Assembly (NCBI GenBank): GCA_024280015.1 | Contig: JAJRQY010000064.1 | Coordinates: 29,254 to 93,253 of the forward strand | DNA from: Actinomycetes bacterium | Lineage (GTDB): Bacteria; Actinomycetota; Acidimicrobiia; Acidimicrobiales; SZUA-35 | Reading direction: 5' to 3' | DNA: 64,000 nt | Shown here: in pieces, positions 28,668-50,489 of the stretch | Position numbering within the stretch: position 1 is the stretch's first letter | How the letters are laid out: each line of letters starts with the position of its first letter | The notes under the pieces: generated by a model | Database searches by the model: none | What the model saw: the letters and a program-made list of their open reading frames with translations, nothing else | Told to the model about the DNA's origin: nothing | Translations under genes and position numbers: made by a program

Positions 28668-28698
28668 GCATGAATCAGCCAACAGACCTGGAGCACAG

Positions 28699-30222: not shown

Positions 30223-30223
30223 A

Positions 30224-31238: not shown

Positions 31239-31252
31239 TACCTAACTCTACG

Positions 31253-31282
31253 GGACCTGACTCTGCAGGACCTGACTCTGTG
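31253..31282. repeat. 15-bp tandem duplication in the divergent phzF/AKR promoter spacer
   Basis: GGACCTGACTCTG-CA followed by GGACCTGACTCTG-TG. Confidence 0.8.
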
Positions 31283-31306
31283 GCTCAGATCATGTAGCTT
31301 CGAATC

Positions 31307-34265: not shown

Positions 34266-35771
34266 GTGCTGCCGATGCTGTACCCAATGGACATATCGCC
34301 TTGGTTCCTGGTTGCCAGCCTGAGTGGTCTGGCTTGCGCGTCACTTTCTCTAGCAGTAATCGTCGCAGGGTGGGTGCGTCGCGTCGCCGAAGTCGCCATT
34401 CTTGGCAGTGGATTGTTCTCCCTTTCCATCTTTGCTGCCGCGTTTGGGCTCAGCGTCACTGATCTTGGCGGTGGCTCACCGGCTAGCCCAATGCTGGCGT
34501 ACTTGGCCTTACCATCGGCGGTTTTCACCGCCTTTCCTCTCCTTTCACCAACGACAGTCACCGCACGTTTCATCGGTCAGCACTGGCGATCCTGGGTTGC
34601 GTTTTGCGCTGCTACCAATATCGCCGGAGTCGTCCTACTCATTGGGAATACCGCCCCAGTCGGAATAGTGACCAAGACGGTGCTCCTGACCATTGGCATC
34701 CTCGGCAGTTTGAAGCTGGCCAACCGCCAGGTTTACCTCTACAGAATCAGTGGTCGTACAACAGCCCTAGCCACTGCCGCGGCCGTTGCGTCGCTCACCC
34801 TCTCCACCTCGATGGGGCCAGCGGTTCAGCCTGGCAGTGTCTGGTCCTGGATAGTCCTGGCCGCCGAAAACGCCGCCGTCCTCTCAGCCGGAGGGGCCAT
34901 CATCTATGGCTACCGTACCGGGCAGAGTGTTGCTGACATTCTCGGACCAATGCTGTCCAACGAACCGCTTGCGGCCCTGGAACTTGGCCTAAGCCCAGAG
35001 GTCCACAGCTTTGTCGCTGCGCTGGAACAGAAGGACCAGGTCACTCGAGATCATGTTGTTCGGACATCGGCGCTAGCTATGCGGGTCGCCATCCGAGCCG
35101 AATTGAAACCAACCGAGGTACGCGAGATTGCCCTCGGGGCTTTGCTACACGACATTGGCAAGCTCATCGTTCCCAGCAGCATCATCAACAAGCCTGACCG
35201 CTTGACCGATGAGGAGTTCGCCACCATCCAAACCCACCCCGAACAAGGTGAGCGGTTACTCGAGGGATCGGTGGTACTCGCCCCCGCCGCTCGCTTCGTA
35301 CGAGGCCACCACGAACGGGTCGATGGCAAGGGCTATCCCGATGGCTTGAAGGGGGATGAGCTTTCATTGGAAGTGGCCATCGTCAGTGTTTGCGATGCCT
35401 GGGATGCCATGACCCACACCCGCCAGTACCGCCAAGGTATGGGAAGCGAGCGAGCGACGGAGATTCTCCAAAGGGGCGCAGGCAGCCAGTGGCGGGCAGA
35501 TGCCGTACTACTTGTTCTCGCCGAGATATCGAGCAATGGTCAGTCCGATCTGGAAGCAGCTGGTCCAATTGGCCGCCACAATCTGGTCGACATGCAATGC
35601 CAGCTAACGGAACAAACCCTGGCCAACCAAACGCTGGCTGAGCAAACACTGGCAGAGGAAGCGCTGAGTTGCTGTGTTCCGGAGATCGCTTCTCAGGAAA
35701 CAGCCCGCACTAAGTCAATGGCCCGGCCAAGTGTGTCCAATCGATCAGACAAGGTGTCCCCGGCCGGATAG
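34266..35771 (+). CDS. Membrane-bound HD-GYP domain phosphodiesterase
   Basis: About 7 N-terminal TM helices precede HDIGKLIVPSSIINKPDRLTDEEF...HPEQG...GHHERVDGKGYPDGL (HD and GYP motifs). The start is uncertain (GTG 34266, ATG 34275 or ATG 34287). Confidence 0.8.
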   Translation: MLPMLYPMDISPWFLVASLSGLACASLSLAVIVAGWVRRVAEVAILGSGLFSLSIFAAAFGLSVTDLGGGSPASPMLAYLALPSAVFTAFPLLSPTTVTARFIGQHWRSWVAFCAATNIAGVVLLIGNTAPVGIVTKTVLLTIGILGSLKLANRQVYLYRISGRTTALATAAAVASLTLSTSMGPAVQPGSVWSWIVLAAENAAVLSAGGAIIYGYRTGQSVADILGPMLSNEPLAALELGLSPEVHSFVAALEQKDQVTRDHVVRTSALAMRVAIRAELKPTEVREIALGALLHDIGKLIVPSSIINKPDRLTDEEFATIQTHPEQGERLLEGSVVLAPAARFVRGHHERVDGKGYPDGLKGDELSLEVAIVSVCDAWDAMTHTRQYRQGMGSERATEILQRGAGSQWRADAVLLVLAEISSNGQSDLEAAGPIGRHNLVDMQCQLTEQTLANQTLAEQTLAEEALSCCVPEIASQETARTKSMARPSVSNRSDKVSPAG

Positions 35772-36733
35772 AGCCTCACCGTGGTGATGCCACTCTCACT
35801 CCAACATTGGAGCCGTTCCCGGACATGCTCTTCGGGCCCGATCAGGGTGGTTGCCAGAACCATCTCGTCGGGGATGACCTCAGCCGCACCAGCACGGTCC
35901 CCAGCCAACCAACGCCGCTGCGACTCCGCTGCCACGTCCTCATACCCGGCACGAGCGTAGGCCGAGTTATAGAAGTTCGTGTTGCCGCTGCCCATGCCAC
36001 CGAGACTGAAGGCCAGACCCATCTTGCGCTCGGTCGTCATTGCTTCGAGGTCATCACCAAAAGCCACTTCGGCGCCCTGGCAGAGATCGAGATCGGCCAG
36101 CTTGCGTCCAGCTTTCTCGGCGCCTGCTCGCAGGTGTTTCCAGTAGGCAGACTCTGCACCTTCTGGGACAAACGAAGTTCCGATCCAGCCGTTGGCGACC
36201 TCGCCGGTATAGCTCAGCATCTTGGGTGACAGGGACGCGACATAGAGGGGAATCGGGGTTTCGGGAATGGGTTGAGACAATCGCAAGGCTTTGCCCTCAC
36301 CCCCGGGCAGAGGCAATGTGAGGGTTGACCCATCATGCTCAATGCGCTCGCCCGCTTCGGCCTTGCGCAGGACAGCGACCGTATCCTTGAGGCGCGACAG
36401 TGGCTTAGCGAACGACACTCCGTGCAGTCCTTCCATCACCTGAGGACCGCTAACACCAAGGCCTAACAGGAAGCGGCCGTTCGTGATTCGCTGCAAGGTC
36501 AGGGCGGTCATGGCGGTGAGTGCCGCCGAGCGAGCGCCAACCTGGAAGATGCCCGAGCCGAGGAGCACGGTGGAGGTTCGGGCAGCCAGATAGCCAATGG
36601 GAGTAGCAGCATCAGTTCCCCAGGCTTCGGCCACCCAACAAACCTCGACTCCCATGGCCTCGGCCTCAACCACATAGCCCACCAGCTCGTCCCAAGGACC
36701 AGCATCCGCCGTCAGCTGGATAGCGACTCGCAT
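35693..36733 (-). CDS. LLM-class (luciferase-like) F420-dependent oxidoreductase
   Basis: MRVAIQLTA...VCWVAEAWGTDAATPIGYLAART...GRFLLGLGVSGPQVMEGLHG is a typical LLM F420 family profile. There is a TGATG overlap with the upstream SRPBCC gene. Confidence 0.85.
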   Translation of the reverse strand: MRVAIQLTADAGPWDELVGYVVEAEAMGVEVCWVAEAWGTDAATPIGYLAARTSTVLLGSGIFQVGARSAALTAMTALTLQRITNGRFLLGLGVSGPQVMEGLHGVSFAKPLSRLKDTVAVLRKAEAGERIEHDGSTLTLPLPGGEGKALRLSQPIPETPIPLYVASLSPKMLSYTGEVANGWIGTSFVPEGAESAYWKHLRAGAEKAGRKLADLDLCQGAEVAFGDDLEAMTTERKMGLAFSLGGMGSGNTNFYNSAYARAGYEDVAAESQRRWLAGDRAGAAEVIPDEMVLATTLIGPEEHVRERLQCWSESGITTVRLYPAGDTLSDRLDTLGRAIDLVRAVS

Positions 36734-37248
36734 CAGACGCTTCCCATGCCCTGCGGATCTTCAAGCCTGGACTTGAGAGTTTCGAGGTTGGCCAGCATGT
36801 TGGCTTCGTGGAACTTCATCCGACCGGCGACGATTCGTTCTTCCTTGTCCGGCATGGCCTTGATTGCTGGAGTCAAGCCAGAATCGCCAGGACCAATCCG
36901 AACTCGCTGAGTAACCAGCAGCGAACCGTTCTCCTGCTCAGTCATCTCAAACCACCATTGGGCTGCCTGGTGCGGGGCATCGCCGATCATCCAACTCCAA
37001 TGACTGAGAGGCACCCACTCAACGACCAGCGACTCCGTCGTCCACTCACCGATGGCCTCATGACGATTTCGACCAAAGATGGTCACACCAAGCCCACCCT
37101 CCTCTGCACCGACCCAGGATGCTTCCTGTAGTTCCGAACTCACTGAAGCCGGGAACCCTGGGTCGCTGATCAGCTCCCATACTGCTTCAGGAGAAGCGTC
37201 TACCTCGATTGAAGCTTCGGCGGTCGGACCATCGGCATAGAGAACCAT
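36733..37248 (-). CDS. SRPBCC family protein (polyketide-cyclase/START-like fold)
   Basis: The internal ATG 37248 gives MVLYADGPTAEASIEVDASPEAVWELISDPG, a typical SRPBCC N-terminus. The longer ORF would overlap the ALDH gene. Confidence 0.7.
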   Translation of the reverse strand: MVLYADGPTAEASIEVDASPEAVWELISDPGFPASVSSELQEASWVGAEEGGLGVTIFGRNRHEAIGEWTTESLVVEWVPLSHWSWMIGDAPHQAAQWWFEMTEQENGSLLVTQRVRIGPGDSGLTPAIKAMPDKEERIVAGRMKFHEANMLANLETLKSRLEDPQGMGSV

Positions 37249-37288
37249 AGGGAATGAACCTAGCTCAGACTGCCCGCAAACTGCAGGT

Positions 37289-38824
37289 TCAGACAGTGCC
37301 CTCAAAGGCTGGATCAACACCAGCTTGATCGCCACCAAAAGTGTCATGCCAGGTGGTGACAACAACCTTCTTGTCGGTATAGAAATCAACCGCATCCACG
37401 CCACGGCCCCGCAGGGCACCGTAAAAGGACGACTTTCGGCCGCCGACCGGGTAGAAGGCAATTGGAGCCGGAGTTCCAACATTGATGCCGACCTGGCCGG
37501 TCTGTACCGACTGGCGGAACCGTCGGGCCAATCCGCCACGCTCGGTGTAGATCACGGCCGAGTGTCCGTAGGTGGAGGCATTGATGATGTCTATGGCCTC
37601 GTCAATACTATCGATCACGGTGATGCAGCGAACCGGGCCAAACAACTCGGTGGCCCACACGGGGTTAGATGGATCGGTCTCGATCAGGGTCGGGCCAAGC
37701 CAATGTCCCTCTTGGTATTCCTCTGGGTTTCCTTCTACCGTTGCCCCTCGACCGTCACGAATGATGCGGGCCCCGCTGGCTTCGGCCGCATCGATTGCTT
37801 CGGTGAACTTCGCTAACGCGGCAGCATTGATGACCGGGCCCATGCCGACTCCTTCAATGGTGCCGGGCCCCATTACCACATCGTCGATGGCAGCCAAGAA
37901 TCTCTCCATGAACTCCTCATAGACCGAGCGATAGACCAGCAGGTTGGAGCCAGCAAAGCAGCGTTGTGAGGCACATCCAAACAGCGATGAGGTGATGTTG
38001 GGCAAGCACCGGTCAAGGACTGCCGTGTCGGTGACAACCAGATTGTTCTTGGCTCCACCCTGGGCTTGGCAGCGCTTGGAGTTTCCGGTCGAGCGGCGGT
38101 ACACGATCTCTGCCACTTCGGAAGATCCAACGAAGGTGACTCCTTCGATGGCCTCATGGTCACACAGTCGCTCCACCGTGATCTTCTCGCCGAGCACCAT
38201 ATTGAGCACACCATCAGGGATGCCAGCTTCGGCCGCCAACTCAACCATGCGAATGGTGGTGAGGGGGCAATACTCACTTGGCTTGAGCACCACCGTGTTA
38301 CCGGTGGCAACAGCCCAACTGAAGTAAAGGGGGATCATGGCCGGGAAGTTGAATGGAGCGATAACGGCAAACACACCAAGGGGTTCCTTGATGTACTCGA
38401 TGTCGACCGAAGTAGCGACGTTCTCCGTCACCGCGCCCTTCTGGGTCTCGGTCACAGCAGCGGCATTCTCCACATACTGGATAGCCCGAAGCAGCTCACC
38501 CAATGCCTCAGGGGTCGACTTGCCATTCTCCTCAACAATGATGGCAGCCAACTCATCCCGGGCGTCAAACAGCAACTGGCGGTAGCGGAACATCATGGCC
38601 GAACGGGTCGGCACCGGAACCATGCGCCAGGTTTCGTATGCCTCAGATGCGGCATCGATTGCAGCATCGATTGCAGCATCTGAAGAGTTCGGGTGAACGG
38701 CTATGCCAGCACCGGTAGCCGGATTGGTGACGATGGACTCGCTGATGGAATCGATGTCGACCCAGTTCCCATTCACGAAGTTCTGAAGTACGCGTTCGGG
38801 CCTTACGGGGGAAGATGTTGACAT
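37289..38824 (-). CDS. CoA-acylating (methyl)malonate-semialdehyde dehydrogenase-type aldehyde dehydrogenase
   Basis: MmsA-type blocks are IAPFNFPAMIP, VLKPSE, FVGSSEVA, GGAKNN (in place of the ELGGK of classical ALDHs) and the catalytic Cys in ASQRCFAG. An AGGAG RBS overlaps the enamidase-like stop. Confidence 0.8.
   Translation of the reverse strand: MSTSSPVRPERVLQNFVNGNWVDIDSISESIVTNPATGAGIAVHPNSSDAAIDAAIDAASEAYETWRMVPVPTRSAMMFRYRQLLFDARDELAAIIVEENGKSTPEALGELLRAIQYVENAAAVTETQKGAVTENVATSVDIEYIKEPLGVFAVIAPFNFPAMIPLYFSWAVATGNTVVLKPSEYCPLTTIRMVELAAEAGIPDGVLNMVLGEKITVERLCDHEAIEGVTFVGSSEVAEIVYRRSTGNSKRCQAQGGAKNNLVVTDTAVLDRCLPNITSSLFGCASQRCFAGSNLLVYRSVYEEFMERFLAAIDDVVMGPGTIEGVGMGPVINAAALAKFTEAIDAAEASGARIIRDGRGATVEGNPEEYQEGHWLGPTLIETDPSNPVWATELFGPVRCITVIDSIDEAIDIINASTYGHSAVIYTERGGLARRFRQSVQTGQVGINVGTPAPIAFYPVGGRKSSFYGALRGRGVDAVDFYTDKKVVVTTWHDTFGGDQAGVDPAFEGTV
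38652..38680. repeat. 12-bp tandem repeat x2.4 in the ALDH 5' region (AIDA repeats)
   Basis: GCATCGATTGCA units. Confidence 0.85.
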
Positions 38825-38835
38825 AAGAAGGGCTC

Positions 38836-39999
38836 CTAGACAGAGAACGAGATGGTGCGAGTAGCTGGTGGCGTGTTGCGGCTCTTTGAGAATTTGACCT
38901 GGCCGTCAATGATCAGTCCGGCAACGGCCATGGTGTCGCCAATGGCCAAGGCACCCAGGGCATCACTGGCCTGGGATCCCATTGGGGCATCGACGATGGC
39001 GAGGTCGGCTTCGGCCCCAACCCGGATGATGCCACGGTTCACGTTGTGCAGCTTCGCCGTGTTGCCGGTGGCCATGGCTACGGCAAGTTCGGGGGCAACA
39101 GCACCGAAGCTGGCCACATAGGACATGACCCGCAGGATGCCAAGCGGCTGCACTCCAGACCCAGCGGGACAGTCGGTCCCAATAACAACCCGATGCAACT
39201 CGTCCCGTTCTTGGGCCAGCCGAGCCACCTCACCCAATGAGACAATGTTGCCATTGTGGACCAGCTCGATATGGGCCGTCGTTTCATCCAAGATCCGAAT
39301 GACGTCGTCAATGGGCAATGCCGTCGGACCGCCGTTCACGTGTCCGGCGACGTCGGGCCTGACCTCGCCAACAAAGTCGGCATCGATCACACCACTACCG
39401 GGGATGGAGGCCCCTCCGGTATGAACCATGACTCGCATATCTCGAGCTTGAGCCCAGCGAGTCATCTGTGCCGCCTGGACCGGATCCTTCAATCCGGAGA
39501 TGCCTATCTCACCGACCAATCGGCAACCAGCAGCAGCCAGGTCGTCAAAGTCGGCTTCGACGAGGCCTTCTTCTAACAGGATGGCTCCGGCATGAACCTT
39601 GACCCCCGAAGGGCGAAGGTTGCTGAAGGACTTGTGGGCCAAGATGGCCAGCGCCTTGACTCCGGCTGGATCGGTTGGGCGGCCAGGCACATGCGGCTCA
39701 CCGGCAGATTGCATGGTCGAGACGCCGCCATGCATGCAGGAATCAATGAAGTCGAAGGTTCGCTGCCGCGGGGTGAAGTCACCAATCACGGGGTGAACAT
39801 GGTTGTCGTGCAAGCCAGGAATGACCGTTGCTCCGCCTGCATCAATCACCTTGGTGATTCCGTCGGCATCACAGTCGGCCTCCGCTCCAACGGCACTGAT
39901 CAGGCCGTCACGAACAACGATGGTGTTCGCTTCGACCAGCGGTGCGTCAAGGTCTCCAGACACCACGGTGCCAATGCCTTTGATCACAAGATCGTTCAT
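38836..39999 (-). CDS. Enamidase-like amidohydrolase (1,4,5,6-tetrahydro-6-oxonicotinate amidohydrolase type)
   Basis: Amidohydrolase fold (DNHVHP metal motif). The blocks GDFTPRQ, HTGGASIPGS, VNGGPTA and SRNTPPA and the 387-aa length match my recollection of Eubacterium barkeri Ena. This needs an alignment to confirm. Confidence 0.7.
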   Translation of the reverse strand: MNDLVIKGIGTVVSGDLDAPLVEANTIVVRDGLISAVGAEADCDADGITKVIDAGGATVIPGLHDNHVHPVIGDFTPRQRTFDFIDSCMHGGVSTMQSAGEPHVPGRPTDPAGVKALAILAHKSFSNLRPSGVKVHAGAILLEEGLVEADFDDLAAAGCRLVGEIGISGLKDPVQAAQMTRWAQARDMRVMVHTGGASIPGSGVIDADFVGEVRPDVAGHVNGGPTALPIDDVIRILDETTAHIELVHNGNIVSLGEVARLAQERDELHRVVIGTDCPAGSGVQPLGILRVMSYVASFGAVAPELAVAMATGNTAKLHNVNRGIIRVGAEADLAIVDAPMGSQASDALGALAIGDTMAVAGLIIDGQVKFSKSRNTPPATRTISFSV

Positions 40000-40051
40000 G
40001 GGAGAGATCCTTCTGTTGGAGGCTTGTTGTTGAAGACTTGTTGGTAGAAAA

Positions 40052-40161
40052 CCGACTGGCTACTGGCTGTCATTTGACTGGCAATTGACTAGCTGTTGAC
40101 TGGCAATTGACTAGCTGTTGACTGGCAATTGACTAGCTGTTGACTGGGGAGCGACTGGGCG
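40052..40161. promoter_or_regulatory. Array of 11-bp-phased TTGACT boxes (22-bp unit x3 plus degenerate flanks) in the divergent promoter spacer
   Basis: Exact TTGACT occurs at 40074, 40085, 40096, 40107, 40118, 40129 and 40140. Degenerate boxes are CCGACT at 40052 and GCGACT at 40151. The unit is TTGACTGGCAATTGACTAGCTG. Confidence 0.6.
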
Positions 40162-40258
40162 CCTCGCCCCGAAGTTCACTTGTGTACGAGTGAGTTGATG
40201 CTAGTGTTGTGATCAATCTCACGCAAGACATCACACAAGCTTTCTGGGGACCAAGCGT

Positions 40259-41203
40259 TTGAGCTATCTGCTTCCAACTTCAATCGAAGCGGCCCTGAGT
40301 TTGTTGGACAGCGCGCCTGAGAACGAACGCGCGCCAACCATCGTCGCTGGAGCCACCGACTACTACCCACAGCTCAGTCACACAGTGGCCAAAATCCAGC
40401 CAACCGAAGACATCCTCGACATCACGCGTCTCGACGAACTTCGTTTGATTCAAGAAGTTCGCGCGGACCAACAAGATGGCGACTACTGGCGTATTGGCGC
40501 TCTCGCCACCTGGGCTGGTGTTTCCCGCACAGACATGCCGCCAGCATTTGCCGGGTTGCAGCACGCCGCCACCCAGATCGGCAGCGTGCAGATTCAGAAT
40601 GCGGCAACCATCGTTGGCAATGTTTGCAATGCCTCGCCAGCCGCCGACGGTGTGCCACCCCTTCTGACTCTGGGAGCCAAGGTCGAACTGCGATCCCTTA
40701 CTCAGGCCCGCTTGGTTCAAACCCGCTTGGTCCCGTTGGAAGAATTCATCCTCGGCAACCGGCGGACAGCAAGACAACCAAACGAGCTGGTCACCGCCAT
40801 CCTCATACCCACCCCGCAGCGTGGCATGGTCGGGAGTTTTGAGAAGTTGGGGGCGAGGGCCTACCTGGCTATCTCCATTGTCATGGTGGCCGCGGTGGCC
40901 GATATTGATGAGGACGGAACTATCAACTCAGCCCGGATCGCCGTCGGGGCATGCTCGGAAGTAGCCCAGCGCTTGCCCGATCTGGAACACGACCTGGTTG
41001 GGGTTCAGGTGAGCAATCTTGGAACTGACTTCAGTATCAGCGACAACCATCTTGCCCCACTCGCTCCCATTAGCGATGTGCGGGCCAGTGCGACCTACCG
41101 GATGTCGGTGACTCCTCCACTGATCGCCCGAGCTCTGGCTCAGTGCAGGCAACAGAAGAATCCACTGACCAAGAGGCAGGGTCATGAGCAAGCATCCAGC
41201 TGA
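40259..41203 (+). CDS. Molybdenum hydroxylase FAD-binding subunit (CoxM/XdhB-like)
   Basis: The FAD_binding_5 profile includes [10 protein letters not shown] and IGALATW. The start is TTG at 40259. Confidence 0.85.
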
Positions 41204-44090
41204 CGACACAGCCGACCAAACAGTCAAGCTCATCGTCAACGGTAAACGGGTCGAAGTAGACGTCGAGCCAATGACTCGGCTCAGCCAGGTACTGCGAACC
41301 GAGCTTGGTCTGACCGGGACCAAGGTTGGTTGCGATGCCGGAGACTGCGGCGCCTGCACAGTTCTGATCGATGGTGAGCCGCTTTGCTCGTGTCTAGCAC
41401 CCATTGGCCGCCTCAGCGGAAGCAAGGTGGAGACCGTCGAATCTCTTTCGGAGAGCGAAGCCGGGCGAGTGCTACAAAACTCATTCCTCAGCAACGCTGG
41501 CACCCAATGCGGATTCTGCACCCCGGGCGTACTGATGGCAAGCACCGCACTACTCGCCAACAATCCGAGTCCCACCACCCAAGAGATTGAGGCAGGGTTG
41601 GGTGGCGTCTTGTGTCGCTGCACCGGCTATCGCCAGATCATTGACAGCGTTGCCGCCGCAGCCCAGGCGGCCCAATCCGGTTCTATCGATGTTGAAGAAC
41701 CGACGACGGGCAAGGCAGTCGGTGTCTCAATCGGTCGAGTTGATGGTCGTCAGAAACTGTCGGGCCAGGACATCTTTGGCGACGATGGAGCACCAGATGG
41801 CGCCTTGGAAGTCCGGGCAATCCGATCGCCCCATCACCGCGCAAGTTTCACCCTCGGAGACCTTGACGCCTACATCAGTTCCAGTCCAGGAATCGTCGCC
41901 ATTCTGACAGCGTCAGACATCCCCGGTATCAATCAGTTTGGCGTCATTCCCCCAATGGCTGACCAGCCAGTGTTTGCGGAAACCGAAACCCGGTTCATGG
42001 GCGAGGCAATCGCTGCGGTCATAGTTAAGCCACAAACTGAACCACAAACCGGGCCACCATCTGGGCTCGGTACCCGAGTAGATCTGTCCGGATTCCCCGT
42101 CACTTGGACCGAGCTGGAACCGGTAATGGACCCGACCGAGGCTCAGACCCCGGATGCTCCCCTTCTGCATGCCGATCGGCCCGATCGGGCCAACAATGTG
42201 ATGGCCCGGCGCCTCGTATCCCGAGGTGACCTCGCAGCGGCGATGTCGGCCGCAGTAGTGACTACCAGTGGCGAGTTCCGAACCTCCTTCGTTGAACATG
42301 CCTACATCGAAACCGAGTCCGGCTGGGCCGAGGTCAGTGACGGACCTGGCAGCTACATCGTCTCCATCCATGTGACGACCCAAGCACCGTTCTCAGACCG
42401 CAATGACACCGCCGCCATTCTTGGCGTTGATCCCGAACGTGTCATCATTCGGCCAACAGCTTGCGGTGGTGGCTTCGGCGGCAAGCTGGACATGTCGGTA
42501 CAGCCAATCCTGGCTTTAGCCGCAATCAAGGTTGGTGTGCCGGTTCGCATGACCTATGACCGGGCCGAGTCCATTGTGTCAACAACCAAACGCCATCCGG
42601 CCATCATGACCGCAACTCTTGGTGCCGATGCCAGTGGCTCGTTCACTGGCTATCAATTCGATGGCACTTTCAACACTGGTGCCTACGCCTCATGGGGTCC
42701 AACGGTGGCAACCCGTGTTCCCCTTCACGCTGGCGGACCCTATACCTATGACGCCTATCAGGCTCGCAGCGTGGCCGTCCACACCAATGGCCCTCCGGCT
42801 GGGGCTTTCCGTGGCTTCGGAGTTCCCCAGGCCGCCATCGTGCAAGAAACATTGGTTGACATCCTCGCAGAGCAACTGGATCTTGATCCTCTGGAGATTC
42901 GTCTGACTAATGCCCTTGGCGCCAATCAACCGACGGTGACTGGCCAGACATTCGCCTCTGGCATGGGCTTCGCCGAGTGCCTGGAAGCCCTTCGTGAACC
43001 CTACGAGAAGGCCAAGGAACGAGCCGCTCTGTTCAACACAGCCCAATCCAACACAGCCCAATCCAACACAGCCCAGTCCAACACAGCCCAGTCCAACACA
43101 GGAACGGCAACCTCGATCCGTCGGGCCGGCGTTGGCATCGCCGGAGCCTGGTACGGCTGTGGCAATACTGCCTTGCCCAACCCATCGCAGATGAAGGTCG
43201 GACTCGATCCCGATGGTCGAATTCGGCTTCATCAGGGGGCCGTCGACATTGGCCAGGGTGCCAACACGGTCATGAGCCAGATCTGCGCCGATGGCCTTGG
43301 GGTGCCTCTGTCCAAGGTCCATCTGGTTTCGGCCGATACTGACCACACGCCGAACGCAGGCAAGACATCGGCGTCACGCCAAACCTTCATCACCGGCAAC
43401 GCCACCTACCTGGCTGCTCAGGCCTTGCGGGCCGAGATTTTGGCCCTGGCTGGCTTGGCGTCGGACCCAGAAATCGATTCCAATACCACAATCGATCTAG
43501 ATGGTTCGGACCTCTCTGTCCTTACCCGATCCGACCGCGTGATCGTTGACCTCACAACCCTCAAACTCGACAACGATGGCTACGTTGCCGCTGGCTTCGG
43601 AACCTATGATCCACCAACCAAAGAACTGGATGACCAAGGCCAGGGCGAGCCATACGCTGTCTACGGATTTGGGGCCCAGATGGTTGAGCTTGAAGTCGAC
43701 ATGGAAACCGGGATTGTCAGCCTCCTGTCGGTTGAGGCGGTCTACGACGTTGGCCGGGCCATCAACCCAGCCCTGGTTCGGGGGCAGATCACCGGAGGCG
43801 TCGCCCAAGGAATCGGCCTGGCTCTGATGGAGGAATACATCCCCGGCGCCACCAACAACCTGCATGACTATCTGATTCCGACCATCGGCGATGTTCCTGA
43901 AGTACGGGTCACCCTGGTCGAGTCCGGCGACCCACTCGGACCCTACGGGGCGAAGGGTGTCGGCGAGCACTCCTTACTGCCGACGGCCCCAGCCATTCTC
44001 AACGCCCTGCGTCAAGCAATTGGCACCCCGGTGCGTCACATTCCTGCCACCCCAGATCGACTCTTGGCCATCATCGAGGGCCGATCATGA
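41184..44090 (+). CDS. Fused [2Fe-2S] + molybdopterin-binding hydroxylase subunit (xanthine dehydrogenase / aldehyde oxidase family)
   Basis: The N-terminal ferredoxin-type clusters are [12 protein letters not shown] and QCGFCTPG...LCRCTGY. A roughly 800-aa Moco domain follows (GGGFGGK, GFGVPQ, AKGVGE). Confidence 0.9.
43035..43101. repeat. 15-bp tandem repeat x4.4 inside the Moco domain (NTAQS x4)
   Basis: AACACAGCCCARTCC units. Confidence 0.95.
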
Positions 44091-45733
44091 ATGAGTCGAC
44101 CAAGAATGGATCAACGAACAACGGATCGACAAACACAGCCTCTGAGCCGGCACGTCGTACCCAGCCGATACAGGCTGACCACACGCCGACCGAACAATTT
44201 GCGTCTGAGCTAGCCGAATACGTCGACCCAAACAGCACAGGCAGCCCAGTCGACCCAAACAGTACAGGCAGCCCAGAAAACTCGGGTGACTCAGACGTAA
44301 AGATTCGCTGCGATGCCTGCCCGATCCGTTGCTTCATCCTGCCCGGCCGAACTGGCTCATGTGATCGCTACGGCAATGTTGACGGGGTGCTCACCCGCAT
44401 GGATCCGGTGACGGTTCTGCAACGAGCTACCGAGAGGGGTGCGGACGTTGTGCCGTTCGCTCTGGTCAGCGATAGCTGGTCAGGTGAAGTGGTACGCCAG
44501 GCTGACGTCTTCGTCACCGGCACCGGTTCGGGCACCACCTATCCCGACTACAAGCCCGCCCCATTCATCGTGTCCCAAGAGGTCGACGGCATCGACATGG
44601 TGACGGTGGTGACTGAGGGGATCTTCTCCTACTGCGGGGCCAAGGTAAAGATCGACACCGACCGTCATGTCGGGGCCGAACGTTCCCTGGTCTACTCCGA
44701 AGGCGAGGAGATTGGTCATGTCACAACGGCGGAGTACGGATCGCAGATGCTGTCTCTCGGAGGCGTGCATCACCTGACTGGTCTCGGTCGTAAAGCTGGA
44801 CTGGCCACCATGCGGGCTCTGGTTGACCTGTGTGCGGGGAAGCCGATCACGGTGCAGGTTGAGGATGGAGCCGAGCTTGTTCTGCAAGCCGGCAGCGCTC
44901 CAATTATCGATGGCGTTGTCGATGAGCGGATGCGGGTCGGCTGCGGTTCAGCCGCCATTGGCATGTTCGCCAGCCAATGGGCCCCGCACGTGGACGAGGT
45001 GGTTGTTGTTGATGACCACATCACCGGAGTTTTAACCGAGCACCAAGCAGGTGTTGTGCTTGGTATCAAGCCCAGTGGTATCAAGTTGAAGGGGCGCCGT
45101 TCCACCCCCGGCCGCTACTTCGAGATTGCCAACCCTGGTTCAGGTTGGGGCGGAACTGATCTGGAGGATCCACTCTCCATCGTCCAGTTCTTCAAGCCCA
45201 AGAAGGCTTGGCCCGGTTTGACCCTGCTGATGGTGTCAACCACGGGAACCGATTACGCCTACTACGTGCTGGATGACAAGCTGGTGCCTCAGCCCGCTCC
45301 CCTTCCCGCCATCTTGCAAGAGTCGGTGGATCGGGTGCGGTCCAACTGCGAACCGACCATGACGTCGGTCCTGTTTATGGCCGGAGCTGGAGGTTCACTC
45401 CGGTCTGGCGTGACGGCAGATCCGGTTCGACTGACCCAATCGGTTCGAGCAGATGAGACGCTAGTTACCTGTGGCGGTGCGCCAACCTATGTGTGGCCTG
45501 GCGGCGGTATCACCTTCACCGTTGATGTGACCCGTACCCCGGTTGATTCATTCGGCTATGTGCCGACTCCGGCACTGGTGGCCCCGATTGAATTCACCAT
45601 GCCACGAAAGACCTACCTCGCGTTGGGTGGCCATGAGGATTCGATCCTGACGCTAGATGAGGCATTGACCGAGGTCCCGACCCAGGTCGTCACCGCTGAC
45701 CCGCAGAATCCTTGGCCCGGCGATCGGCCTTGA
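44087..45733 (+). CDS. Cys-cluster protein, putative 6-hydroxynicotinate reductase-like
   Basis: The N-terminal motif is [23 protein letters not shown] (C-x2-C-x3-C-x9-C). It lies between the Mo-hydroxylase and UPF0280 genes with an ATGA overlap. The assignment rests on context and motif, not on an alignment. Confidence 0.5.
44222..44275. repeat. 27-bp tandem duplication in the 5' region of the reductase-like gene (VDPNSTGSP x2)
   Basis: GTCGACCCAAACAGYACAGGCAGCCCA occurs 2 times. An imperfect 15-bp pair lies at 44105..44134 (NGSTN x2). Confidence 0.9.
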
Positions 45734-46770
45734 TGGACACTCAGATAGCCAGTCAGTTAACAGCTGACCCACCGGCAGTCGCGCCACAGACAGTCGCGCC
45801 ACCGAGAACCCAGCCACAAGCAGGTGGACCTCAGGCGACACTCATCGCTGACGGAAGTCGTCTACACCTCAACCATGGCCCCATCGATCTGATCATCTCG
45901 GCTGATGGCTCACCCGCAGCCCGGAGGCGGGCATTCGATGCTGCCGCCAGCCGGTTTGATGGCCTATTGGAGGAGCTGGTACACGAGCTCGACGTTCTTC
46001 GCACTCCGGCCCAATCCCAGCCAACGTCACAATCACAGTCACATCCTCAGACACCGGCAGCCGGCGGTGCCGTAGCCCAACGCATGCTGGCCGCGGTCTG
46101 GCCATACCGGGACCGGGAACGGATTACCCCGATGGCTGCGGTAGCTGGGGCGGTGGCCGATGAGATTGGGGCGGCCATCACCAACTCAGATCCAGCGGGT
46201 GACCTCACCCGTTGGATGGTCAACAATGGTGGCGACATAGCGATATGGCTGGCGGCCGGACAGGCCTATCGCGTCGGGGTCGTCATGGGCCACCCATCTC
46301 TGCTGGCGCCGCTGGAGCCTCTTGTTGCGTGTTCTACCGGTGCCGGGACGGATCGAATCGACACTCACGCAGGAGCGCTAGCAATCACAAGCGAGATGCG
46401 CATTGGCGGGATCGCCACTAGCGGTCAGCCAGGCCGAAGTTTCTCCCTTGGTATTGCGGACTCCGTCACCGTCTTGGCCAATAATGCTGCAGCTGCTGAT
46501 GCGGCGGCCACCCTTATTGCCAATCGGGTCGATCTTCCTGACCACCCTGGTATCAGGCGAACTCCGGCCTGTGAACTGGATCCGGACAATGATCTTGGCC
46601 AGATCCCCATCACCGTCGACGTACCTTCGCTAGAAGAAGCCGAGGCCGCAACGGCTCTGGGCGCCGGGCTCAGCTTTGCCAATGAACTGGTGTCTGACAA
46701 GCTCATTGTTGCTGCCATCCTTCACCTCTGCGGACTCACTGTCTCAACTTCACGACAGAGCAGCCAGTGA
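45733..46770 (+). CDS. UPF0280 (ApbE-like) family protein
   Basis: The block SRLHLNHGPIDLIISADG resembles the UPF0280 signature as I recall it. ATG 45733 overlaps the upstream stop (TGATG). The tracked TTG at 45712 is an alternative start. Confidence 0.55.
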   Translation: MDTQIASQLTADPPAVAPQTVAPPRTQPQAGGPQATLIADGSRLHLNHGPIDLIISADGSPAARRRAFDAAASRFDGLLEELVHELDVLRTPAQSQPTSQSQSHPQTPAAGGAVAQRMLAAVWPYRDRERITPMAAVAGAVADEIGAAITNSDPAGDLTRWMVNNGGDIAIWLAAGQAYRVGVVMGHPSLLAPLEPLVACSTGAGTDRIDTHAGALAITSEMRIGGIATSGQPGRSFSLGIADSVTVLANNAAAADAAATLIANRVDLPDHPGIRRTPACELDPDNDLGQIPITVDVPSLEEAEAATALGAGLSFANELVSDKLIVAAILHLCGLTVSTSRQSSQ

Positions 46771-46805
46771 CGACAGAGCAGCCAGTTACGACAGAGCAAC
46801 CAGAG
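46752..46805. repeat. 18-bp tandem repeat x3 spanning the UPF0280 stop and the marR start
   Basis: ACGACAGAGCARCCAGWK units. Unit 1 carries both TGA 46768..46770 and GTG 46767..46769. Confidence 0.9.
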
Positions 46806-47309
46806 CAACCAGGCCAGCCAGGCAAGCGGCCTGCCAAGCGGCCGGCCAAAAAGCGTCAGCAAGCTGGCACCAAGGCGACCGTCAAGGATGGCTATGTCCT
46901 GGAGGACCAGATTGGATTCTTGCTGCGGAAAGCGAACCAACGCCATCGTTCCATTTTCGGCAACCAGGTCAAGAACAACATTGCTCCCGCTCAGTTCTCC
47001 GCTCTGGCCAAACTTCACCAGCTGGGGCCCCTGTCTCAGAATCACCTTGGGCGCCTCATCGCCCTGGATTCCGCCACCATCAAGGGTGTGGTGAACCGCC
47101 TAGTCCAGGCTGACTATGTGACCAGCGAACGGTCCGAGGACGACGCCAGATTGCGAATCATTGACCTCACCACCCATGGTCGAATCCGTATCAAGGGTCT
47201 GCTTCCCTTGGCTGAAGAGATTACTCAGCTCACGCTTGCCCCTCTCAACGATCAAGAAGCGAAGACGCTCCATCGACTCCTGAGCAAGATTGCCGGATCA
47301 CTGGACTAG
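46767..47309 (+). CDS. MarR family transcriptional regulator with a repetitive/basic N-terminal extension
   Basis: The wHTH region is FSALAKLHQLGPLSQNHLGRLIALDSATIKGVVNRLVQADYV. The N-terminus is TTEQPVTTEQPEQPGQPGKRPAKRPAKK. There is a GTGA overlap with the upstream stop. Confidence 0.85.
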   Translation: MTTEQPVTTEQPEQPGQPGKRPAKRPAKKRQQAGTKATVKDGYVLEDQIGFLLRKANQRHRSIFGNQVKNNIAPAQFSALAKLHQLGPLSQNHLGRLIALDSATIKGVVNRLVQADYVTSERSEDDARLRIIDLTTHGRIRIKGLLPLAEEITQLTLAPLNDQEAKTLHRLLSKIAGSLD

Positions 47310-47315
47310 CGAAAT

Positions 47316-47393
47316 CGTGCTACCTCAAACCGTGCTACCTCAAACCGTGCTACCTCAAACCGTACTATCTCAAACCGTGCTACCTCAAACCGT
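47316..47393. repeat. 15-bp tandem repeat x5.2 at the convergent marR / AA_synth junction
   Basis: CGTGCTACCTCAAAC units (the 4th copy is CGTACTATCTCAAAC). The 5th copy contains the stop and the last three codons of the minus-strand gene. Confidence 0.95.
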
Positions 47394-47997
47394 CTTCGCC
47401 GACGATCTCATCGACAGTCAACCCACCGACTCGGGGGAGTGGCCGACCACCATCGGTTACCGCAACTGCGAGCACGATCTCATCGGCTGCTGGACCATCG
47501 GGCACCCGGAACTCCACTGCGTCAAAGTGACTGCGAACAAAGGCTGCGTTGCGGTGATGGAGCGGAATATCGAGAGTGCAGCCCGGACCACCTCGCTTCT
47601 TCGCTGAGGGGATGATGGACTTTCCCCCACCGCAGGCTTCACGAAGTGGAGCACCAAGCGCTGGATGCAAAAGGGCGGCGGCGTGCTCAAGTTCACCATT
47701 GGTACCAACAATGACCCCCTTGCCATAACTGTGAACTTCAGCACCATCTAGAAGGGCGACGGCACGCTCAGAGAGTTGCTTGGCCAACACCTTGCTCGCT
47801 TCGATGAAGGGAGTGAGGTCTTCGACGTAGCGACCGGCATAGGGGTTAGAGAGCACGGCGGCAACCACGACTCGGCGAATCGGATGTGAGAGCTCTCGGC
47901 CAACTTCAACGTGCCGGTCATCAATCGTTGCCAGGGTGCGCAGAATCCTGATGTCGTTGCTCATATTGGTGTCGCTGGCATTGGTCATGTCAGTCAT
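47380..47997 (-). CDS. Amino-acid-synthesis family protein (AA_synth/DUF1185-like)
   Basis: The blocks PIRRVVVAAVLSNPYAG, HSYGKGVIVG and GELEHAAALLHP resemble that family as I recall it. The function is unknown. Confidence 0.7.
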   Translation of the reverse strand: MTDMTNASDTNMSNDIRILRTLATIDDRHVEVGRELSHPIRRVVVAAVLSNPYAGRYVEDLTPFIEASKVLAKQLSERAVALLDGAEVHSYGKGVIVGTNGELEHAAALLHPALGAPLREACGGGKSIIPSAKKRGGPGCTLDIPLHHRNAAFVRSHFDAVEFRVPDGPAADEIVLAVAVTDGGRPLPRVGGLTVDEIVGEDGLR

Positions 47998-48059
47998 GTC
48001 GGCCTCTCCTCATTGCTGGTATGCAAGTGAACTGAACCTATCCAGTAGGACCCGACCGC

Positions 48060-48119
48060 GCAAGGTCGACTGGTGCAAGGTCGACTGGTGCAAGGTCGAC
48101 TGGTGCGAGGTTGACTATG
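48060..48119. repeat. 15-bp tandem repeat x4 in the divergent AA_synth / pncA promoter spacer
   Basis: GCAAGGTCGACTGGT occurs 3 times, followed by the degenerate copy GCGAGGTTGACTATG. Confidence 0.95.
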
Positions 48120-48207
48120 GTCATTCCCAAGTCGTGAACAGGATCACCTGTAGCAGGACATCACACCGCAAGAAATCAAGACAGCAAAGAAGTGAGCCAA
48201 CAGAGAG

Positions 48208-48795
48208 ATGGAGCCAACAACAATGAAGCGAGCCTTGATCGTGGTGGATGTGCAGAATGATTTCTGCGAAGAAGGCTCGCTCGCTGTTGTTGGCGGAGGA
48301 GCGGTGGCCGGGCGGATCTCGGCCTACCTGCGAGACAGTGCGGCTGACTACTCAGCCATTGTTGCTACCCGAGATTGGCACATTGACCCCGGCGAACATT
48401 TTGCCGATGAACCCGACTTTGTCGACACCTGGCCCAGTCATTGTGTGGCCGACAGTTCCGGAGCCGACTTCCATCCCAACGTCGATGAGCATGTTGTGTT
48501 CTCCGAAGTGATCGATCTGATTGTGTCCAAAGGACAATACGCCGCCGCCTATAGCGGGTTTGAGGGAACGGCACCCGACGGTGGATCACTCAATGGCTAT
48601 CTGCAAGCCCGAGGAATCACGGCTCTCGATGTCGTTGGCCTCGCCACTGACTACTGCGACCGAGCAACGGCAATGGACGCCAAGAAACTTGGCTACGACG
48701 TTCGCTTGTTGACCGACATGTGCGCCGGTGTCGCACCGGAGACGACCACTCAAGCATTGACTGACATGACCGAAGCTGGCATCGAGATCGCCTAG
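48208..48795 (+). CDS. pncA: Nicotinamidase/pyrazinamidase (isochorismatase family)
   Basis: Family blocks are ALIVVDVQNDFCEEGSLAV, TRDWHIDPGEHF, WPSHCV and GLATDYCD (catalytic Cys). Confidence 0.85.
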   Translation: MEPTTMKRALIVVDVQNDFCEEGSLAVVGGGAVAGRISAYLRDSAADYSAIVATRDWHIDPGEHFADEPDFVDTWPSHCVADSSGADFHPNVDEHVVFSEVIDLIVSKGQYAAAYSGFEGTAPDGGSLNGYLQARGITALDVVGLATDYCDRATAMDAKKLGYDVRLLTDMCAGVAPETTTQALTDMTEAGIEIA

Positions 48796-48806: not shown

Positions 48807-50489
48807 TCATGGGGCACCGGGATTCTCGGGTTCGCATTGGATCGATGCTTGCGTCTCGCACTGTTCTCCTTGGCCACGGATCCCGCGACCACCTGAATTC
48901 ACATTGACTGGGGGTGGGTCATCTGTTGCCTCGTCTTCTGGAGAACCCTGGTTGGGCTGTTGACGATCAGGATGGGCCTCATTGCGAGTGAAATGAACCG
49001 ACCAGGGATCGTACGATTCACCCAGTGGGTGGGTGTAGGTCCCTTCGGGTGGAGCATCAGGAACGGGATGTGCCCTCTGGATATCGCGGCCACCCTTGGC
49101 AATGAAACGCAGACCATCGCCACTGGAAGTCTGTAGCCCGAACGGTGTCTCCGGATTGCCCACAATGGAAAAAGCGTGGCGGTGATGCTCACGATGATGC
49201 CGGCGACACAAGGTCACCAGATTGTCGGTGTCGGTGAGGCCGCCCTTGACCCAATGCTTCATGTGATGAACGTCCAGCCAGCGCTGGGCTGCGCATCCGG
49301 GAAAGCGACAGCCATTGTCTCGGTTGAGGATGATCTCCCTCAGCCACGAAGGCACTGCCGCTTGTGTCAAACCTAAGGACACAGGCTTGCCAAACTTCGT
49401 CAACAGCAGCTGGACTGAACTCTCACACGACAGCAGGTCCATAACGTCGGTGGTGAGCACTGGGCCGAGATGCAAGTTGGGGCGCAAGCCCTGAGCCCAT
49501 GACGAAAGTTCGCTGGCCTCCAAATGGATGAGCACTCGGTTGTCGGCGCCACGAGAACCAGATGGGTCGGCCTCGACTCCGGCGCGAATCATGGTGAGGA
49601 ACGAGTCAAACCCGCTGACGTCAGTTTCACCGGTGTCGGCCTTCAATCGAGCACGCGCCTGATCGAGTGCAGCGACAATCTCGGCTCCGTCATCGGCACC
49701 ACAACGCATCCACATCCGGAAGTTCCCATCATCATCAAAGCCGTAGCCAAACCCGCGGTAGGGCTTGTCCAACTCTTCTTGGACGAAACCATCAGGCATG
49801 TCTGAGGGGCAGCAGTTGTCAGGAAGCGAGTCGGGAAGGGACAAGCCATCGGATCCATCTGCGTGGTCAGGATTGTTGGAGGAATCCGAAGAGGGCTCAG
49901 CACCGGGATCGCTAGTCGAATCGTCATCGGAGTTGTCCGAAGGATCGGGATCGGGATCGGGATCGGGATCGGGATCAAGGAAGCAATAGTCACGCATGAT
50001 GCGGCGAAGTTGCGGGATCGTGGCATGGACGGCGAGGGCGGAAACCGTCTGGTCATAGTCGACCGGACAGTGGCGGGCGATAAGAGTCATTTGGTCGATA
50101 CTGAGCTGACCGTCGGAGAATCGGTCAAAGGCAAAGGGCAACTCGCAACGACGCTCGGCGATGCGAACCAGGCGACCAGAATGCTGCCGGGTAAGCCCAA
50201 GTTGCCATTCGACCCAGTGGAAAATGGAGTTGATCCCCGAGACACACCACTCGCCCGAGCCAATGACATCGGCGATCATGTTGACAACAGCGTGATCGGC
50301 CAAGTTGCGTGAGCCGGCCAAGGATGCGACCAGGTGTTCCGGAGCAACAAGCTCGTCTTCGGTGCGGCAACGCTCCCCTGGCACCTCCGAGACAGTCCGG
50401 ACATCAGCGGTCGAAGAGCTGGCCACCGTGGAGGCCGAATCAGGTGAGGACTGCTGCCCTTCCATCAGTGTATCGAACATATGTACCAT
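48807..50489 (-). CDS. DUF222 + HNH endonuclease domain protein (actinobacterial 13E12-repeat type)
   Basis: The C-terminal HNH motif is CRFPGCAAQRWLDVHHMKHWVKGGLTDTDNLVTLCRRHHREHH. The N-terminal part is DUF222-like, with a central DPDPDPDPDP low-complexity stretch. Confidence 0.85.
   Translation of the reverse strand: MVHMFDTLMEGQQSSPDSASTVASSSTADVRTVSEVPGERCRTEDELVAPEHLVASLAGSRNLADHAVVNMIADVIGSGEWCVSGINSIFHWVEWQLGLTRQHSGRLVRIAERRCELPFAFDRFSDGQLSIDQMTLIARHCPVDYDQTVSALAVHATIPQLRRIMRDYCFLDPDPDPDPDPDPSDNSDDDSTSDPGAEPSSDSSNNPDHADGSDGLSLPDSLPDNCCPSDMPDGFVQEELDKPYRGFGYGFDDDGNFRMWMRCGADDGAEIVAALDQARARLKADTGETDVSGFDSFLTMIRAGVEADPSGSRGADNRVLIHLEASELSSWAQGLRPNLHLGPVLTTDVMDLLSCESSVQLLLTKFGKPVSLGLTQAAVPSWLREIILNRDNGCRFPGCAAQRWLDVHHMKHWVKGGLTDTDNLVTLCRRHHREHHRHAFSIVGNPETPFGLQTSSGDGLRFIAKGGRDIQRAHPVPDAPPEGTYTHPLGESYDPWSVHFTRNEAHPDRQQPNQGSPEDEATDDPPPVNVNSGGRGIRGQGEQCETQASIQCEPENPGAP
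49942..49976. repeat. 6-bp microsatellite (GGATCG)x5.8 inside the HNH gene
   Basis: It encodes (DP)n on the minus strand. Confidence 0.95.

Follow-up and report, generated by a model that had tools for sequence, protein, structure and literature searches.

A gene cluster that is very likely a genuine catabolic cluster for nicotinate or nicotinamide, of the reductive type that passes through 1,4,5,6-tetrahydro-6-oxonicotinate (THON), was found at positions 35693–48795 of a 64,000-nt stretch of DNA (the window, to which all coordinates refer unless a locus is named) from an Actinomycetes bacterium assigned to the Acidimicrobiales (GenBank assembly GCA_024280015.1, contig JAJRQY010000064.1). On balance, the gene content suggests a full set of enzymes for converting nicotinamide or nicotinate to glutaryl-CoA. 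Conversion of 2-formylglutarate to glutaryl-CoA and CO2 by an aldehyde dehydrogenase (ALDH) of the methylmalonate-semialdehyde dehydrogenase (MMSDH, MmsA) family, encoded beside the enamidase gene (ena), is the interpretation of the lower step with the most support, and in our view a fairly probable one. The cluster had been described in an earlier reading of the same DNA (the original prediction), which proposed such an MmsA-type shortcut within a catabolic island of an F420-using actinobacterium.

The upper pathway is anchored by the enamidase (Ena), which aligned gap-free with the Eubacterium barkeri enamidase structure PDB 2VUN (residues 2–382 of 387), and this full-length similarity (E 1e-123) upheld the earlier call of an enamidase-like amidohydrolase. 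A search with 2VUN also led to a contig whose enamidase is 97% identical to the 2VUN sequence, and this contig (locus L166) served as the E. barkeri-type reference for direct comparison; its enamidase is 52% identical to that of the window (E 8e-141). The genes of L166 are arranged as LysR, then Hnr-UPF0280-Hgd-NdhF/S/L/M-EIIC-Ena-DUF1185, where Hnr is 6-hydroxynicotinate reductase, Hgd 2-(hydroxymethyl)glutarate dehydrogenase and Ndh nicotinate dehydrogenase, followed by genes for a B12 mutase, a PrpF-type isomerase, MutL, an ICL-type lyase, a 468-aa protein and an aconitase pair. We take this order to agree with that of the published E. barkeri cluster.

Domain-wise searches of the fused [2Fe-2S]/molybdenum cofactor (Moco) subunit of the hydroxylase against the PDB matched its L-part to 3HRD_A with 206.5 bits (next match 126.8 bits) and its M-part to 3HRD_B with 222.9 bits (next match 162.1 bits), which places the enzyme nearest E. 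barkeri nicotinate dehydrogenase and not the CO, xanthine or aldehyde enzymes, in agreement with the nicotinate-type hydroxylase of the original prediction. The aldehyde oxidoreductase of D. gigas topped the whole-chain search only because the parts of E. barkeri Ndh are separate chains, and this apparent closeness was set aside as an artefact. Identities to NdhS, NdhL, NdhM and NdhF of L166 were 41, 33, 40 and 30% (E 4e-36, 5e-66, 4e-67 and 2e-24, respectively). The fused subunit is predicted to be the equivalent of NdhS, NdhL and NdhM together, acting as a nicotinate 6-hydroxylase. The TTG start of the FAD subunit lines up with an ATG start in locus L004, a syntenic sister of the window whose Hnr is 88% identical.

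The cysteine-cluster protein at 44087–45733, for which no Pfam, NCBIfam or PDB match was obtained, shows 40% identity across 460 aa (E 3e-96) when aligned with the L166 Hnr, and this alignment identified what had been called a reductase-like protein as an Hnr homologue. More than 8000 homologues were found, many of them named 6-hydroxynicotinate reductase by NCBI or JGI; alphaproteobacterial homologues, including that of Xanthobacter, are 59–64% identical to the window protein, named homologues from Actinomycetota metagenome-assembled genomes (MAGs) about 64–69%, and others reach 88%. In an alignment of 20 diverse family members the motif C75-x2-C78-x3-C82...C92 was invariant. An N-terminal 2x[4Fe-4S] ferredoxin domain (CxxCxxCxxxCP, twice) was present in distant members only, including that of L166, and was absent from the window Hnr and its actinobacterial, acidobacterial and proteobacterial relatives. 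Its place is taken in the window by about 70 low-complexity residues, encoded within 44087–44300, over which the homologues do not extend, and the 5' part of hnr carries a tandem repeat of 27 bp x 2 at 44222–44276. The E. barkeri enzyme reportedly contains two [4Fe-4S] clusters and a covalently bound flavin, as described by Alhapel in 2006. With an alignment of 25 sequences as input, AlphaFold2 gave a low-quality model of the window Hnr (mean pLDDT 56.7, pTM 0.46), and a Foldseek search with it against the PDB returned nothing with E <0.1. The start of hnr overlaps the Moco gene stop in every non-fermentative locus examined. Ferredoxin-less Hnr may draw its electrons from the hydroxylase, which would make the conversion of nicotinate to THON net redox-neutral.

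Nicotinamide probably enters the pathway through the product of 48208–48795, which is predicted to be a nicotinamidase. The gene had been labelled pncA, and the label held as far as the isochorismatase family and the best model, nicotinamidase PRK11609, are concerned, but the score lies below the model cutoff of 174 bits. Isochorismatase genes recur in related loci. In one of these, the Acidimicrobiales-type MAG locus L169, an isochorismatase gene beside the DUF1185 gene is fused to a RidA (Ribonuc_L-PSP) domain (575–2067 of that locus) and adjoins genes resembling 3-hydroxyanthranilate dioxygenase and ACMSD; this fusion hints at imine or enamine handling and at a link with NAD and quinolinate metabolism.

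The original label of the product of 37289–38824, an MmsA-type CoA-acylating ALDH, agrees with both the characteristic sequence blocks and the score against TIGR01722 (MMSDH), which exceeds the cutoff of 448.5 bits (Table 1). The ten best PDB matches are all MMSDH enzymes, the top one being 1T90 (E 1.5e-110, about 40% identical over the full length). Close relatives were collected by a scan of metagenome contigs that yielded 80 loci, onto which the window proteins were mapped. Among ALDHs at least 47% identical to that of the window whose contigs extend 1.3 kb or more upstream, 30 of 31 had ena on the same strand within 3.5 kb, compared with at most one of 18 ALDHs below 47% identity (Fisher p = 4.8e-11). 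In 18 of the 30 linked loci ena lies directly upstream (gap 10–232 nt), in eight a single small gene intervenes, in L118 ena is about 1 kb upstream, and in three the order is reversed. The exception below the cut, L121 (46.9%), falls just under it, and its near-identical neighbours L119 and L120 lie inside the clade. In a neighbour-joining tree, which did not include L121, the ena-linked ALDHs formed one clade that is sister to canonical MmsA, including that of B. subtilis (1T90). The common gene order is DUF1185-Ena-ALDH, followed in 15 loci by a transporter of the branched-chain amino acid (BCAA) ABC type. The closest named homologues of the ALDH (72–79% identity) come from MAGs of Acidimicrobiales, Acidimicrobiia and Actinomycetota, and the databases label all clade members as ordinary CoA-acylating methylmalonate-semialdehyde dehydrogenases.

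In L117 and L119–L121 the enamidase-linked ALDH clade occurs together with an Hnr that carries the ferredoxin domain, as in anaerobes, and neither Hgd nor a B12 mutase is present. Since the clade is thus also found beside ferredoxin-type Hnr where Hgd and the mutase are missing, the ALDH branch forms an alternative to that of Hgd with either type of Hnr. These four loci may encode an anaerobic pathway that leads to glutaryl-CoA and differs from the fermentation of E. barkeri.

Residues R113, N159, R288 and C289, which correspond to Arg124, Asn169, Arg301 and Cys302 in ALDH2-style numbering, are kept in all 37 clade members, and position 255 is Gln at the site where hydrolytic ALDHs carry Glu268. 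Work by Talfournier in 2011 is said to have shown that Arg124 and Arg301 of the B. subtilis enzyme bind the carboxylate that is lost. Relative to 24 canonical MmsA sequences, the clade shows fixed switches of N to Y117, W to Y167 (position 177), L/M to F290 (303), N to H421 and F to V460 (465), together with further fixed changes of F to V178, F to Y426 and several in the 451–460 loop. The canonical MmsA pocket (W177, L/M303, F465 and N409 in B. subtilis numbering) is therefore not kept; positions 177, 303 and 465 presumably line the substrate channel of ALDHs. As read from the alignment, the residue pattern fits an enzyme that would bind and expel a beta-carboxylate and accept a larger, polar 2-substituent.

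None of the genes for the E. barkeri lower branch, namely Hgd, Hmd, 2-methyleneglutarate mutase (Mgm), Mii, Dmd and Dml, was found in the window by tblastn with the L166 proteins. The proposed route follows from the enzymes that are present, with the steps from nicotinamide to 2-formylglutarate assigned by homology. The PncA-like amidase would convert nicotinamide to nicotinate, the two-gene molybdenum hydroxylase (FAD and fused FeS/Moco subunits) would produce 6-hydroxynicotinate, Hnr would reduce this to THON, and the enamidase would open the ring to give (S)-2-formylglutarate and ammonia. 2-Formylglutarate is methylmalonate semialdehyde in which a carboxyethyl group replaces the methyl group, that is, a 2-substituted malonate semialdehyde. 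The ALDH is envisaged to oxidise it with NAD+ to a thioacyl-enzyme, from which the C1 carboxylate, held by Arg124 and Arg301, would leave as CO2 before the glutaryl group is passed to CoA. This single step would replace the Hgd/B12-mutase branch of E. barkeri and also the three steps reported for Azorhizobium, whose route reportedly consists of decarboxylation, oxidation to glutarate and CoA transfer. Glutaryl-CoA would presumably be oxidised by a dehydrogenase encoded elsewhere. The shortcut of the original prediction thus gained an ena-linked sister clade, conserved MMSDH residues, an altered channel and the absence of the E. barkeri lower genes in its favour, and the reaction itself is still a predicted one.

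The main competing explanation, which we consider unlikely, is that 2-formylglutarate is decarboxylated before it reaches the ALDH, either spontaneously or by DUF1185, and that glutarate semialdehyde is what the ALDH then oxidises, with glutaryl-CoA or glutarate as the product. DUF1185 always stands beside ena, also in clusters that have no ALDH, so that it could carry out the next step; the 1992 study of Kitts reportedly puts decarboxylation ahead of oxidation; and a pocket that has become larger and more polar (F465 to V, N to H421) would also suit the distal carboxylate of a linear C5 semialdehyde. However, the two arginines to which carboxylate binding is attributed have been retained throughout the clade, and the E. 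barkeri-type cluster has DUF1185 yet uses intact 2-formylglutarate for Hgd, so that DUF1185 cannot be an obligatory decarboxylase there. It is less probable still that the cluster degrades another N-heterocyclic carboxylate, such as a different pyridine or pyrazine carboxylate or a substituted nicotinate, with another 2-formyl dicarboxylate as the ALDH substrate. Substrate specificity is not readable from identities of 30–41% between the hydroxylase and E. barkeri Ndh or of 40% for Hnr, and the PncA-like protein scores below the nicotinamidase cutoff; against this stand the full-length match of 52% between Ena and a characterised enamidase, a gene content and order as in the E. barkeri and Azorhizobium/Bradyrhizobium nicotinate clusters (PMC3511419), and a nicotinamidase-type gene that recurs as a neighbour. 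A chance neighbour of ena, with the ordinary function of a methylmalonate- or malonate-semialdehyde dehydrogenase in the catabolism of valine, beta-alanine or inositol, would explain the database annotation of all clade members and the TIGR01722 score, but the clade-wide linkage to ena that canonical MmsA does not share, the different residues fixed at five or more substrate-channel positions, and the lack of adjacent valine or inositol catabolic genes make this very improbable.

Several observations nevertheless weigh against a decarboxylating, CoA-acylating 2-formylglutarate dehydrogenase. The TIGR01722 cutoff was passed by 9 bits only, the ALDH tree is a neighbour-joining tree that carries no bootstrap values, and the substrate-channel positions were mapped by ALDH2 numbering and not from a structure. 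Electron supply to an Hnr that has no ferredoxin domain is a weak point of the route as a whole. No glutaryl-CoA dehydrogenase was found within the 64-kb window; the only ACAD-like open reading frame (ORF) there, at 23863–25206, was rejected as a candidate, as it lies far below every NCBIfam cutoff and belongs to an unrelated aromatic-acid cluster. In Azorhizobium, the 1992 work of Kitts reportedly described free glutarate and a CoA transferase and not the direct formation of glutaryl-CoA. Furthermore, the 80 top-ranking reference-genome loci with Hnr (from Proteobacteria, Acidobacteriota and two Actinomycetes; relatives listed at 56–68% identity) have no ALDH of this clade within 10 kb, and the pathway in general can thus do without it.

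The conserved core of the pathway was examined in these 80 Hnr-centred loci and five further loci from exact look-ups, 85 in total. The recurring set was FAD-Moco-Hnr-UPF0280-DUF1185-Ena, with DUF1185 present once or twice and an isochorismatase gene frequently added, and a core of FAD-Moco-Hnr-UPF0280-AA_synth-Ena was seen in loci of Firmicutes, Proteobacteria, Acidobacteriota and Actinomycetota. Neighbourhood analysis of the UPF0280 and Hnr homologues showed that the UPF0280 gene follows hnr in most of the 85 loci as well as in the E. barkeri-type locus, and the genes of each pair, Hnr-UPF0280 and Ena-DUF1185, also stand side by side in L166 and L167 from Firmicutes. In L166 a UPF0280/ApbE-like gene (2824–3672 of that locus) overlaps the end of hnr and a DUF1185 gene (10703–11284) comes right after ena; no discussion of either gene was found in the searchable literature.

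The window UPF0280 protein is 30% identical to its partner in L166 (E 3e-23). A profile of 22 orthologues matched only PDB 2O34 (DVU1097; E 1.1e-15) and gave no direct match to a solved ApbE; the orthologues carry precomputed Pfam assignments to PF27030 ('AbpE_bact') and faint hits to PF02424 (ApbE), and the window protein itself has no PF02424 hit. The motifs NNGGDIA, ATSG..GRSF and ADAAAT resemble what we take to be ApbE motifs. ApbE enzymes flavinylate the target motif D-x-x-[ST]-G-A-[ST] (PMC12052999). This motif was found in none of 20 Hnr family sequences. Since Hnr lacks the flavinylation motif and UPF0280 matches no solved ApbE, a canonical ApbE mechanism was given up in favour of a possible maturation factor, and the hypothesis that UPF0280 serves the covalent flavin of Hnr in this way is a doubtful one. 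No link of Hnr to ApbE-like proteins was found in the searchable literature.

The DUF1185 protein of the window is 53% identical to the product of the gene right after ena in L166 (E 1e-74) and matches PDB 2QTP over its full length. The family occurs in most Hnr loci and in most loci of the ALDH clade, and its crystal structure revealed a chorismate-mutase-like fold with no known function (PMC2954203). Its constant position beside ena points to a role in or just after ring opening, and DUF1185 probably assists the enamidase chemistry. A broader proposal combines these pieces: the ena-linked ALDHs would constitute an unrecognised decarboxylating, CoA-acylating 2-formylglutarate dehydrogenase, widespread in Acidimicrobiia as well as in other uncultured bacteria of soil and fresh water, UPF0280 would act on Hnr as described above, and DUF1185 would be the partner of the enamidase, for example by handling an enamine or imine intermediate. 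Taken as a whole, this combination is possible, and we put it forward tentatively.

Two further genes follow the ALDH gene on the minus strand, encoding an SRPBCC protein and an LLM oxidoreductase. The LLM protein matched TIGR03559 with 320 bits, which is below the cutoff of 335 bits and still by far the best model, so that F420 dependence is plausible for this enzyme. The sole SRPBCC homologue among 169 loci is in L004, and ALDH, SRPBCC and LLM genes were absent from all 85 Hnr loci except L004. The F420-using background that had been proposed for the pathway was not sustained, since the SRPBCC and LLM genes, and hence any F420 link, occur only in the window and L004. They are lineage-specific additions that the route does not need. 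An HD_5 gene for an HD-GYP-like protein of the cyclic di-GMP phosphodiesterase type (501 aa; 34266–35771, plus strand) converges on the LLM gene, with a 79-nt overlap of the 3' ends (35693–35771), and the same convergent arrangement is present in L004.

The MarR gene occupies the same position in L001, L004 and L168, and MarR is likely a repressor of the divergent operons. The spacer between these contains a tandem repeat, TTGACTGGCAATTGACTAGCTG, of 22 bp x 3.4 with 100% identity (TRF score 148), each unit of which includes two TTGACT hexamers and a CAATTG palindrome. Three copies are exact, and because the repeat is found neither elsewhere in the window nor in L004 it appears to be a recent expansion, which could alter promoter spacing or the number of operators. 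The spacer of L004 keeps AAGTTCACTTGTGTACGAGTGAGTTGATGCTAGTGTTG, and a 38-nt block at about 40173–40210, common to the window and L004, is a candidate operator or promoter. No inverted repeat and no sigma-70-like promoter was found in the spacer.

All of the ORFs of the original prediction, as well as the overlaps of 1–20 nt between plus-strand genes and the motifs, were borne out by direct reading of the DNA, and their coordinates are given in Table 1. On the plus strand, the stop codon of the FAD-subunit gene (41201–41203) lies behind the ATG of the fused FeS/Moco gene, giving an overlap of 20 nt; the Moco and Hnr genes share 4 nt (44087–44090), the Hnr/UPF0280 junction is a 1-nt overlap within TGATG, and UPF0280 and MarR overlap by 4 nt. 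On the minus strand, 11 nt separate the ena stop from the ALDH ATG, with GGAG over the ena stop, 40 nt separate ALDH from SRPBCC, and the SRPBCC/LLM junction is again a 1-nt overlap within TGATG.

Table 1. Features of the nicotinate cluster and of its divergent promoter region, listed by position in the window.
Feature	Coordinates	Strand	Description
LLM oxidoreductase	35693-36733	-	Last gene of minus-strand operon; PF00296 244.7 bits; best model TIGR03559
SRPBCC (Polyketide_cyc2) protein	36733-37248	-	PF10604 44.2 bits
MMSDH-family CoA-acylating ALDH	37289-38824	-	TIGR01722 457.7 bits; PFNFPAM and GGAKN blocks present
Enamidase (Ena), amidohydrolase	38836-39999	-	PDB 2VUN, E 1.3e-123
Divergent promoter spacer	40000-40258	.	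Tandem repeat 40074-40147; conserved block ~40173-40210
FAD-binding subunit, NdhF-like	40259-41203	+	FAD_binding_5 PF00941 and CO_deh_flav_C PF03450
Fused [2Fe-2S]/Moco subunit, 968 aa	41184-44090	+	Fer2, Fer2_2, hammerhead, MoCoBD_1/2; six Pfam domains
Hnr homologue	44087-45733	+	40% identity to L166 Hnr; Cys cluster
UPF0280 / DVU1097-like	45733-46770 (ORF call also from 45712)	+	PRK04334.1-2 332 bits
MarR-family regulator	46767-47309	+	PF01047 44.5 bits
DUF1185/AA_synth	47380-47997	-	PF06684 237 bits; PDB 2QTP E 7.9e-64
Isochorismatase-family hydrolase	48208-48795	+	PF00857 82.8 bits; best NCBIfam PRK11609 129.5 bits

The same divergent architecture was found again in the independent assemblies L004, L086, L168 and L169, and this recurrence indicates that the layout of the locus is more than chance. 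The NCBI MAGs GCA_029263195.1 and GCA_054033895.1 share the divergent Ena-ALDH / FAD-Moco-Hnr-UPF0280 layout and have no SRPBCC or LLM gene. The term 'island' applied to the cluster was rejected, as composition is uniform across the window (GC content flat at 0.57–0.61). A DUF222/HNH-endonuclease gene borders the nicotinate cluster both in the window (48807–50489) and in L004 (14577–16280 of that locus), and in L169 a DUF222 gene (11513–12817 of that locus) comes after ALDH; the recurring gene at the cluster border may be a mobile or selfish element. Together with the names of the ALDH and Hnr homologues, the DUF222/HNH gene makes an origin in Actinomycetota, probably Acidimicrobiia, likely.

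Other catabolic genes in the window lie apart from the nicotinate genes. An aromatic-acid catabolic cluster at 21500–31300 includes a gene resembling that for a bifunctional salicylyl-CoA 5-hydroxylase/oxidoreductase (25154–27571; NF006101 1021 bits, just below cutoff), the divergent ACAD-like gene mentioned above, an HpaB-2-like oxygenase gene (28426–30222) and a PhzF-family gene (30258–31238). A sulfatase gene (53250–55262) is coupled to a gene for a reductive-dehalogenase-like protein with a 4Fe-4S dicluster (55250–56614), and this pair is kept in L004. An orthologue of the 3-oxoadipyl-CoA thiolase PcaF is encoded at 7552–8868 (TIGR02430 618 bits, cutoff 597); it is unrelated to the present finding and could serve aromatic catabolism or, downstream of glutaryl-CoA, the lower steps of a beta-oxidation type.

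Mentions of the THON route in the searchable literature were confined to work on E. barkeri and on Azorhizobium/Bradyrhizobiaceae and to reviews citing that work. A written description of the reductive route in actinobacteria was likewise not found, as the original prediction had supposed, although databases already label actinobacterial homologues '6-hydroxynicotinate reductase'. The same literature yielded nothing that links an MmsA-type enzyme to 2-formylglutarate, and no gene assigned to the steps past the enamidase outside the fermentative branch. An aerobic nicotinate route ending in glutaryl-CoA was reportedly described at the physiological level in Azorhizobium in 1992. If the proposed function of the ALDH is correct, the non-fermentative nicotinate route would have its missing gene for the step past the enamidase, a dedicated enzyme of the MMSDH type would add a substrate specificity new to this well-studied ALDH family, and hundreds of metagenomic 'methylmalonate-semialdehyde dehydrogenase' labels would need correction. 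The route would also extend to Acidimicrobiia-like Actinomycetota, a group that is abundant yet poorly represented in culture, with a bearing on the turnover of vitamin B3 in soils and waters. The Hnr-UPF0280 and Ena-DUF1185 pairings would provide testable functions for two families whose crystal structures have been without a function since 2006–2010.

In comparison with the known systems, the window cluster shares with the fermentation cluster of E. barkeri (Alhapel et al. 2006; Ndh 3HRD, Ena 2VUN) the clustering of a nicotinate hydroxylase, Hnr and an enamidase, and with L166 the UPF0280 gene that follows hnr and a DUF1185 gene that accompanies the enamidase, directly after ena in L166. It differs in having no Hgd, Hmd, B12-dependent 2-methyleneglutarate mutase, Mii, Dmd or Dml, in the fusion of the S, L and M subunits, in an Hnr that has no ferredoxin domain, in an MMSDH-family ALDH instead of Hgd after ena, and in a MarR instead of a LysR regulator. 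The cluster of Azorhizobium caulinodans and the Bradyrhizobiaceae (Kitts 1989, 1992; Shettigar 2012) resembles it in its aerobic-type organisation and in a route that ends at glutaryl-CoA (PMC3511419), whereas the proteobacterial and acidobacterial loci have no ALDH of the clade within 10 kb, and the loci of the Azorhizobium group have a BCAA-type ABC transporter that the window cluster does not. With MmsA/IolA (B. subtilis 1T90) the window ALDH shares the family TIGR01722, Arg124, Asn169, Arg301, Cys302, the lack of Glu268 and the expected chemistry of oxidation, beta-decarboxylation and transfer to CoA; it belongs to a separate monophyletic clade, lies beside ena and not beside valine or inositol genes, and its predicted substrate bears a carboxyethyl group instead of methyl or hydrogen. 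For the DUF1185 proteins 2QTP (SPO0826) and 3BYQ (BB2672), a role in amino-acid metabolism was proposed from neighbouring transporters of the BCAA ABC type (PMC2954203), whereas the consistent neighbour of DUF1185 in the loci analysed here is the enamidase, which points to nicotinate catabolism.

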